64,000 nt of DNA from the NCBI RefSeq assembly GCF_024223415.1, contig NZ_CP100500.1; one strand, given 5' to 3'. Source of the stretch: Escherichia coli. Its GTDB lineage: Bacteria > Pseudomonadota > Gammaproteobacteria > Enterobacterales > Enterobacteriaceae. Positions 12,212-15,057 of this stretch are shown one piece after another. The number at the start of each line of letters is the position of its first letter. Positions within the stretch are counted from its first letter, which is position 1. The position numbers and the translations under genes were made by a program. Under the pieces are notes generated by a model. That model saw only the letters and a list, made by a program, of their open reading frames with translations, was not told the DNA's origin and searched no databases.

Positions 12212-15057
12212 ATGAAAATCTGTCTTTACCATACCCTGAATCCTGAAACGATCCCGGGCTATAAAAAGTTTGCGCAGGCCATTGAGGCAGATAATTTCGC
12301 GCAGGCGGATGTGCGTAAAATTGATACTAATCTCTACCGGGCACGCCTCAGTATCCGGGATCGGTTGTTGTTTTCACTTTACCGTTACCGTGGTGAGACG
12401 GTCTGCCTGGTACTGGAATATCTGCGTAACCATGCTTACCACACGTCACGTTTTCTGCGCAGGAATGTGGTGATCGACGAGGCGCGGCTGCAGCTGCAAC
12501 CGGTGCCGGATCCGGCAGATGCAGACGCCGGTACACTGACGTATCTCAACCCCACTCACGGGCGTTTTCACTACCTGGATAAAATGCTCTCTTTTGATGA
12601 TGACCAGCAGGCGCTGTATGAACATCCGATGCCACTGGTGATTGTCGGCTCCGCCGGCAGCGGAAAGACGGCACTGTTACTGGAGAAAATGAAGCAGGCC
12701 GGGGGCGATATTCTGTATCTCAGCCTTTCGTCATTTCTGGTGGAAAAAGCCCGCACACTCTATCACGCATCTGGTGAAGAACATGACGGGCAGACCATTG
12801 ATTTTCTGTCGCTGAGCGAGTTTCTGGAAACCCTGCGCATTCCGGAAGGGCGGGAGGTGACGTTCAGTGCGTTCAGCAACTGGCTGCCCCGCAACCGGAC
12901 CACCGCTGCACTGGCCTCTGGCCATACCCTGTATGAGGAATTTCGTGGTGTCATTGGTGCCGTTGCTTCTGACAACGGACCGCTGTCCCGGGAGGCGTAT
13001 CTGTCGCTGGGAGTACGTCAGTCACTTTATGATATGGATGACCGTCCGGCGGTTTACGCCCTGTTTGAGCGTTATGTTGCATGGCTGAAACAGTCGCGTC
13101 AGTATGACAGTAATCTTCTCAGCCACCAGTACCTGCCACTGGCCGGGCACCGTTATGATGTGGTTTTTGTGGATGAAGTGCAGGATATGACGCCTGTGCA
13201 GCTGCGGCTGGTTCTGAAAACCCTGCGTCATCCCGGTCAGTTTGTACTCTGCGGCGATGCCAATCAGATAGTTCATCCCAGCTTTTTTCCTGGAGTGCCC
13301 TCAAAAGCCTCTTTTTCCGGCAGCAACAGAACGAGGCTGCCGTGAATATTCTGCAGGCGAATTACCGTAACGGGCACCATGTCACCGCACTGGCTAACCG
13401 GCTGCTCAGACTTAAACTGGCCCGGTTCAGTGCCATTGACCGGGAAAGTCACCATTTTGTCAGAAGCTGCGGGCAGACGGAAGGCACCATCAGGCTGCTG
13501 GAAGACCGGGAAGCCACCCGCCATGAGCTGAACAGCAAAACCTCCCGCTCAAACCGTGTGGCGGTGATTGTGATGCAGCCGGAGCAGAAAGCACAGGCCC
13601 GGCGCTGGTTCAGTACACCGCTGGTTTTTTCGGTTCAGGAAGTGAAGGGGCTCGAGTACGAAACGGTGATCCTGTACAACATGGTCAGCAGTACCCGTAA
13701 GGCATTTGATGATATCTGCGAAGGGATCAATCCGGCAGATCCTGAGGGTGAGGTGCGTTATGCCCACCCCCGGGACCGGCAGGATCGTTCAGCAGAAATC
13801 TACAGGTTTTTCACCAACGCGCTGTATGTTGCGCTCACCCGTGCCACGCACAACGTGTACCTTGTTGAGCAGGAGGTGGCCCATCCGCTGTGGTCCCTGC
13901 TGGCCCTCACGCATCATGAAACGCAACTGGAGCTGCAGGAAGAGATTTCCAGCCGTGATGAGTGGCAGAAAACCGCTCACCTGCTGGAAAAACAGGGGAA
14001 GCAGGAGCAGGCGGACACCATCCGCAGTATGATCCTGCAGGAGTCAGAAGTACCGTGGCAGATCTTCAGCGCAGAGGATGCGCGGCAGTGGAAACAGCAG
14101 ATCCTCAGCGGGACGGCGGACAAAGCCACGAAACTGCAGGCGCTGGAATACAGCCTGATTTATTCCCTGTTTCCGCTGTATAATGCGCTGTACCGGGAAG
14201 ATTTTAAGCCCACAAGGCAGCCCCGGACCCGGAGCCAGCAGTTACTGGAGCAGAAGTATTTTCGTCCCTACTCAGTGAATAATCCGGTCGCCGTGCTGAG
14301 GGATATTGAACGTTATGGTGTTGATCACCGCTCGCCGTTTAATCTTACGCCGCTGATGCTGGCAGCCCGGGCGGGGAACACGGCGCTGGTTCAGTTGCTG
14401 CTGGATCGTGGTGCCGATCCCACGCTGACGGCAAATGACGGGCTGGCGGCGTATCATCATGTTCTGTCAGCGGCGGTCAGCACGCCCCGTTATGCGCAGC
14501 AGAAGGGGGCACAACTCTATGCCTTGCCGGGACCGGAAAGCCTGTCACTGCAGGTGGAAGGGCGGCTTGTCAAACTGGACAACCGGCAGATGGCAATGTT
14601 TCTGGTGATCCTGATGCAGGCATTGTTTTACACGCATCTGGGGAATGCTCTGGTTTTTTCAGAAGCCTTCAGTGCGGCACGACTGGCAGAGTGTGTCGCC
14701 CACTTTCCTGAAGCCCTGCTGCCGGAACGCCGCAGGCGGAGGAATTATATCAGCAGCCAGCTTTCTCAGCATGAAGTTAACAGCAAGAACCCTTATGGAA
14801 AAAAGCTGTTTCTGCGACTGAGGCATGGTCAGTATATTCTTAATCCGGGGCTGAAAATCAGGCAGAATGACGGGTGGTACCCGGTTTACGACTTGCAGTC
14901 ACCGGAAGATCTCGGTCATGATTTACAGACGTATCTGCAGGACATGCCCCCGTACATTCTGGAGATTCTGGGGGGCAGGAAGGATGTTTACGAACAAAGT
15001 AAGGGGTCTGTCGGATACTGGGTGGCGATGATCCGCCGTCACAGTGGTGAGCCGTAA
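12212..15057 (+). pseudogene. SF1 (UvrD/RecD-like) helicase with C-terminal ankyrin repeats, interrupted by a frameshift near 13283-13345
   Basis: Walker A VIVGSAGSGKT, Walker B VVFVDEVQDM, motif III CGDANQ in frame 1 (to 13345); motif IV QANYRNG and motif VI YVALTRATHNVYLV in the overlapping frame (from 13342); ankyrin repeat NLTPLMLAARAGNTALVQLLLDRGADPTL. Confidence 0.65.

Follow-up and report, generated by a model that had tools for sequence, protein, structure and literature searches.

A one-base deletion in a T-run splits an accessory UvrD-like helicase-ankyrin gene in Escherichia coli

In the contingency loci of Campylobacter, Haemophilus and Neisseria, a change of one base in a homopolymer inside the coding region shifts the reading frame. 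A change of the same kind is found in a gene for a superfamily 1 (SF1) UvrD/PcrA-like helicase with an ankyrin repeat, which lies in a 64,000-nucleotide (nt) stretch of Escherichia coli DNA, referred to here as the window (contig NZ_CP100500.1 of RefSeq assembly GCF_024223415.1). The gene occupies two overlapping open reading frames (ORFs). Its nearest described counterpart is locus ACHP5I_RS04870 of E. coli GF60, which is 99.93% identical, differs at 2 single-nucleotide polymorphisms (SNPs), has the same T6 tract and two-ORF layout, and is annotated in RefSeq as "UvrD-helicase domain-containing protein; frameshifted". The window is not simply GF60 again: 74% of its first 25 kb matches GF60, at 98.3%, and the two islands differ in insertion sequence (IS) content. 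The intact counterpart is P0124 (EER6665371.1 and others, annotated "AAA family ATPase"), a protein of 948 amino acids (aa), which is also the length of the window's product once its frame is restored. The P0124 locus has neighbors like those of the window, with a UCP030791-family gene upstream and an Rpn/Transposase_31 gene downstream. Further upstream the two diverge, with DUF7828/Zn-ribbon at the P0124 locus and, in the window, a pair consisting of a hypothetical protein and AlpA.

Among characterized helicases, the UvrD/PcrA/Rep group (SF1A) is one point of comparison, and motifs I to IV align to PcrA and UvrD1. Full-length searches of the PDB were dominated by ankyrin matches, and the motif alignment is hence from the helicase core alone, against PcrA (2pjr) and UvrD1 (9dci). 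Walker A (motif I) GSAGSGKT aligns to AGAGSGKT of PcrA, DEVQD corresponds to motif II (DEYQD in PcrA), CGDANQIV aligns to motif III (VGDADQSIY) and LQANYRNG to motif IV (LEQNYRST); the motif V/VI-like strings KGLEYETV and YVALTRA can also be read in the protein. The overall similarity is nevertheless very low (PDB chains match with E about 1e-3; an NCBIfam score of 34.8 against a cut-off of 696 for RecB), and the window protein has an extra N-terminal region of ~120 aa and a C-terminal region of ~350 aa with the ankyrin repeat. In Pfam, the restored 948-aa protein matches AAA_19, UvrD-helicase, Viral_helicase1, UvrD_C and UvrD_C_2 around aa 130-550; E is about 5e-5 for AAA_19 and UvrD-helicase, and the UvrD_C_2 and UvrD_C matches at aa 409-552 are weak (E = 0.002-0.005). 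The ankyrin repeat is recognized at aa 707-750 (Ank_5, E = 4e-7; Ank, E = 3.5e-6) and has many ankyrin matches in the PDB as well.

Gabija GajB and the UvrD-like defense helicases are a second point of comparison. GajB models gave the best PADLOC matches, over the motif II-IV region (E = 1e-11), and the gene lies on a mobile island. These matches are, however, partial and at the domain level, and no GajA-like partner gene is adjacent. More generally, PADLOC and NCBIfam yielded no specific family or defense assignment, only partial, sub-threshold, domain-level matches (GajB, RecB, PcrA, HelD), and a literature search on UvrD-ankyrin anti-phage helicases found nothing specific. Homologs are abundant: more than 4000 have E <= 1e-20. 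Of the 120 top matches listed, the majority are 940-990 aa long, with the same helicase-plus-ankyrin architecture in a single ORF; sources include E. coli, Shigella, Salmonella, Enterobacter, Endozoicomonas, Halomonas and others. At the motif level the protein is a member of the SF1 UvrD-like superfamily, but no named helicase is its ortholog.

Where is the gene broken? The original prediction placed a frameshift that divides the helicase at a T-run, after motif III and before motif IV, and the ORFs, their frames and the PcrA alignment all bear this out; the motif names and coordinates that it gave were accurate. The two ORFs (Table 1) overlap by 4 nt. Their products are identical to database proteins, the 377-aa product to P0121 and the 571-aa product to P0013 and P0123. 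Motifs III and IV are both present in the window but in separate frames, whereas intact P0124 carries both on one polypeptide. In a three-frame translation of 13201-13442, ...LCGDANQIVHPSFF continues into PGVPSKASFSGSNRTRLP and a stop in a single frame, and SWSALKSLFFRQQQNEAAVNILQANYRNGHHV... is found one base behind; a shorter extract of the same translation has ...CGDANQIVHPSFF in one frame and SWSALKSLFFRQQQNEAAVNILQANYRNG... one base behind. The split is a fixed property of the sequence, and chance plays no part in it. A start at 12150, of the PGAP style, was rejected: it is out of frame in the window allele, and the ORF start is the ATG at 12212.

Comparison with the intact allele narrows the switch from the interval originally proposed, 13283-13340, to the T6 run. 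Over 2846 nt, the genes at eight loci with the intact allele (L004-L011) are 98.24% identical to the window, with 49 substitutions (33 synonymous and 16 nonsynonymous) and one gap only, in the first T-run. The intact allele reads CAGCTTTTTTTCCTGG (T7) where the window reads CAGCTTTTTTCCTGG (T6), and the flanks are identical. The nearby T5 run is ruled out as the shift site, being unchanged in the intact allele. Adding one T to the T6 run yields a single 948-aa ORF, and T7 is accordingly the tract length that the ortholog comparison, proposed as a check in the original prediction, identifies as restoring one ORF. The intact 948-aa E. coli proteins P0124, P0125, P0127 and P0128 share a 90% cluster with both window ORF products. 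In alleles of 84% identity (for example that on C5 plasmid A, intact and annotated as 970 aa), the site reads TTTTTCTCATGG and encodes the peptide SFFSWS; a T7-restored window would encode SFFSWS too, with only synonymous differences from these alleles in that stretch. The T7 tract is the sole 7-mer and the longest homopolymer of the intact gene, which also holds five 6-mers. It is therefore the most slippage-prone site in the gene.

Table 1. Features of the split helicase-ankyrin gene; coordinates are those of the window
Feature	Coordinates	Strand	Description
Disrupted helicase gene	12212..15057	+	Two halves of one ~948-aa SF1 UvrD/PcrA-like helicase gene with C-terminal ankyrin repeat; very probably now a pseudogene
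Upstream ORF	12212..13345	+	377 aa, frame 2; motifs I (GSGKT), II (DEVQD) and III (CGDANQ, 13250-13267), then 18 out-of-frame codons and TGA
T6 tract	13283..13288	+	Site of one-base deletion; T7 in intact allele
Out-of-frame tail	13289..13345	+	PGVPSKASFSGSNRTRLP plus TGA stop (13343-13345)
T5 run	13312..13316	+	Uninvolved; CTCTTTTTCC is the same in window and intact allele
GAGG-N5-GTGA	13333..13345	+	Shine-Dalgarno-like GAGG and GTG start of downstream ORF, overlapping TGA of upstream ORF; possible accidental restart
Downstream ORF	13342..15057	+	571 aa as called, frame 1; motif IV (QANYRNG, 13354-13374), motifs V/VI, ankyrin repeat and C-terminal region

The T6 allele is widespread. We found it in >100 independent assemblies from NCBI, ENA and Logan: NCBI drafts, multi-Mb NCBI assemblies, a complete genome, ENA metagenomes assembled with SPAdes or MEGAHIT, and Illumina-based Logan assemblies of SRA runs. 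In the index of the assembly collection, a 377-aa product of the allele, P0122, appears in 108 blocks, and P0123, the 571-aa product, occurs on 47 contigs. All 13 full-length copies retrieved were T6, at 99.93-100% identity to the window and to each other. T6 co-segregates fully with about 49 haplotype-specific SNPs. Complete genomes by themselves could not separate an error from a real lesion: among those of E. coli, GF60 alone has the allele at an identity of at least 99% across the site, and it too is T6. The protein cluster and contig indexes were used instead.

The linkage between tract and haplotype was examined by exact-sequence look-up of five constructs among ~15 billion proteins. The T7-restored window haplotype was absent, as was the T7-restored form of the commonest T6 haplotype. 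Also absent were the T6-type N-terminal and C-terminal fragments of the intact P0124 haplotype and the T6-type N-terminal fragment of the P0125 haplotype. With none of the five reciprocal forms found, tract length is strictly linked to haplotype, as would be expected, from these sequences, of one mutation inherited by descent and unlike a rapidly toggling contingency tract. Of the options that the original prediction had left open, it is the genuine inactivating mutation that the >100 assemblies and the haplotype linkage select.

Has the gene deteriorated further since the break? Disruptive lesions beyond T6 were seen in 2 of 15 copies, numbers too small for statistics. One T6-clade copy (L016) has lost a further single base, at 14564, and another (L015) lacks a stretch from about 14353 onward, so that its remnant is fused to the Rpn gene. 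Within the T6 clade, the C-terminal half has three nonsynonymous substitutions (A601V, D698N and S606R) and no synonymous ones, again small numbers; retrieval of the loci through exact protein identity biases such counts in the N-terminal half but not in this one. Other haplotypes carry lesions of their own. The P0129 haplotype (97% identity; L031-L033) keeps T7 and has G5 shortened to G4 at gene nt ~490; the 84% allele of RM8082 (L002) has G7 shortened to G6 at gene nt ~2826; and in ECCNB12-2 (L030) the helicase gene is gone, with IS256/IS1/IS2 remnants in its place. The alleles of ST131 (EC958) and other strains are intact. The gene has been broken repeatedly and independently in E. coli haplotypes.

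We conclude that a genuine, heritable T7-to-T6 deletion very probably inactivated this accessory SF1 helicase-ankyrin gene on a CP4-57-like island, leaving an ordinary, recent pseudogene. The sequences show a real lesion at this site, of single origin, that truncates the product after motif III and has spread widely, either vertically or with the island. Its most likely cause is slippage during replication of the gene's longest homopolymer. A single recent event in one haplotype produced the lesion, which spread along with that haplotype, and the gene is probably now decaying. Translation from the ATG is predicted to pass motifs I to III, read the 18 wrong codons and stop at the TGA. Without motifs IV to VI (the second RecA-like domain), the ankyrin repeat and the C-terminal region, the 377-aa product would, by the SF1 mechanism, have no helicase action, and we infer that helicase function is lost. 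The type of lesion is already known: this is a textbook case of a pseudogene made by homopolymer slippage, and RefSeq already flags the identical lesion.

Several observations weigh against such a pseudogene. The 13 T6 copies hold 4 SNPs, a diversity too low for a real test of nonsynonymous against synonymous rates (dN/dS). When substitutions are polarized by the 84% allele, the window branch has 10 nonsynonymous and 15 synonymous changes and the intact branch 5 and 15, a mild excess only, which agrees with a recent break. Apart from the frameshift, each half of the gene is open in the window and free of further stops and indels, which fits a recent lesion and leaves loss of function unproven. 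Finally, the GAGG-N5-GTG start overlapping the upstream stop could let the C-terminal piece be made.

Might the T6 allele, then, still be alive? The first RecA-like domain in the N-terminal piece and a GTG-restarted C-terminal piece, with the second RecA-like domain and the ankyrin repeat, could be co-translated as a two-subunit helicase, or slippage on U6 could supply a small full-length fraction; we consider this very unlikely. If true, it would mean a natural helicase gene fission, or leaky expression, spreading in E. coli. Function despite the break would require programmed -1 frameshifting or transcriptional slippage on U6, or a two-piece helicase with a GTG restart, and to these routes we assign only a very slight probability.

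The restart is physically conceivable. In SF1 helicases the two RecA-like domains meet between motifs III and IV, which is where the break falls; the upstream stop overlaps the GTG, with GAGG 5 nt before it, a layout that resembles translational coupling. However, the intact allele has the same bases (there are no differences over codons 350-442). The GAGG and GTG thus pre-exist the split, were not selected after it and are coincidental. As for recoding, a -1 slip on UUU UUU, or insertion of a single U into the mRNA, would yield the exact ancestral SFFSWS, and transcription insertions in E. coli cluster in A/T runs (PMC5574713). A U-insertion could restore the frame in rare transcripts. Against this, transcription slippage climbs exponentially with run length, and that genome-wide study found no transcription error that restored a reading frame (PMC5574713). 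In the 0-frame context AGC UUU UUU CCU, the heptamer C UUU UUU departs from the canonical X XXY YYZ form and has a P-site mismatch. No stimulatory RNA structure was found downstream, in 13289-13400 (112 nt): 65 of 200 shuffles fold as well (z = -0.50). Nor is the two-frame layout conserved; the homologs listed are single ORFs of ~940-990 aa, and the closest relative is a 948-aa single ORF. The extra disruptive lesions in T6 copies speak against a functional allele as well.

A phase-variable contingency switch, in which slipped-strand mispairing would interconvert T6 (OFF) and T7 (ON) and make helicase expression reversible, is also highly improbable. The lesion does lie in the gene's longest homopolymer, gain of a single T would recreate the exact ancestral protein, and phase variation can be driven by homopolymeric tracts (PMC8928963). 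Yet the reciprocal T6 and T7 forms are absent from the look-up even though the T6 allele was sampled >100 times, and the tract is interrupted in other alleles (TTTTTCTC) without consequence. A tract of 6 to 7 nt is short for a contingency tract in mismatch-repair-proficient E. coli. The helicase gene differs from contingency loci in its short tract, in having no ON/OFF polymorphism within a haplotype and in the secondary, irreversible lesions of T6 copies. The slippage-prone switch that the original prediction had offered as an option is unsupported, T6 and T7 each being tied to its own haplotype with no revertants by exact look-up.

A sequencing or assembly error in a genome that is truly T7 with one continuous ORF, the remaining option, is almost certainly wrong: homopolymer under-calling is a frequent artefact on some platforms, but the identical T6 recurs across projects, platforms and assemblers in the >100 independent assemblies, which excludes an assembly error, and random errors would not track ~49 haplotype-specific SNPs.

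The E. coli gene is located on a CP4-57-like island, with YfjI, YagK/YfjJ (inovirus Gp2-type), AlpA and the UCP030791-family gene upstream and the Rpn nuclease downstream. In the window, the gene for this Rpn-family recombination-promoting nuclease (Transposase_31), at 15126-16115, directly follows the helicase gene. At most of the loci examined, in E. coli and in drafts, the helicase-ankyrin gene is preceded by a UCP030791-family gene and followed by an intact or remnant Rpn gene, and the three may form a conserved module. No tRNA genes were found in the window that could mark a tRNA integration site. Beyond the island module, on its downstream side, the region at ~16700-38000 of the window holds IS66/IS21-type remnants together with a cluster for myo-inositol (iol) catabolism and a sugar ABC transporter. 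It matches several E. coli genomes associated with poultry at 99.3% identity, and the window is thus a mosaic accessory region.

The island carries a second frameshift, in the YagK/YfjJ gene (9690-10255). This gene has A6 at about 9984-9989, compared with A7 in GF60 and in another locus (L012), and the lesion splits a 188-aa protein into a 107-aa ORF (9690..10013) and a tail (10103..10255). The A6 lesion is shared with L022, an assembly whose helicase haplotype is that of the window.

For annotation, the two helicase ORFs should be joined in a single pseudogene entry marked as frameshifted. The halves have been deposited separately (SRA15199.1/SRA15198.1 and SRB28217.1/SRB28218.1) as "Superfamily I DNA and RNA helicases" and "putative recombination protein RecB", which is an annotation artefact. 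The T6 tract cleanly marks the lineage of this island haplotype. With four independent homopolymer losses, three in different helicase alleles and one in a neighboring gene, the locus is a small-scale example of how accessory island genes of E. coli decay when short homopolymers lose single bases. The function of the intact helicase-ankyrin protein is a more interesting question than the pseudogene itself.
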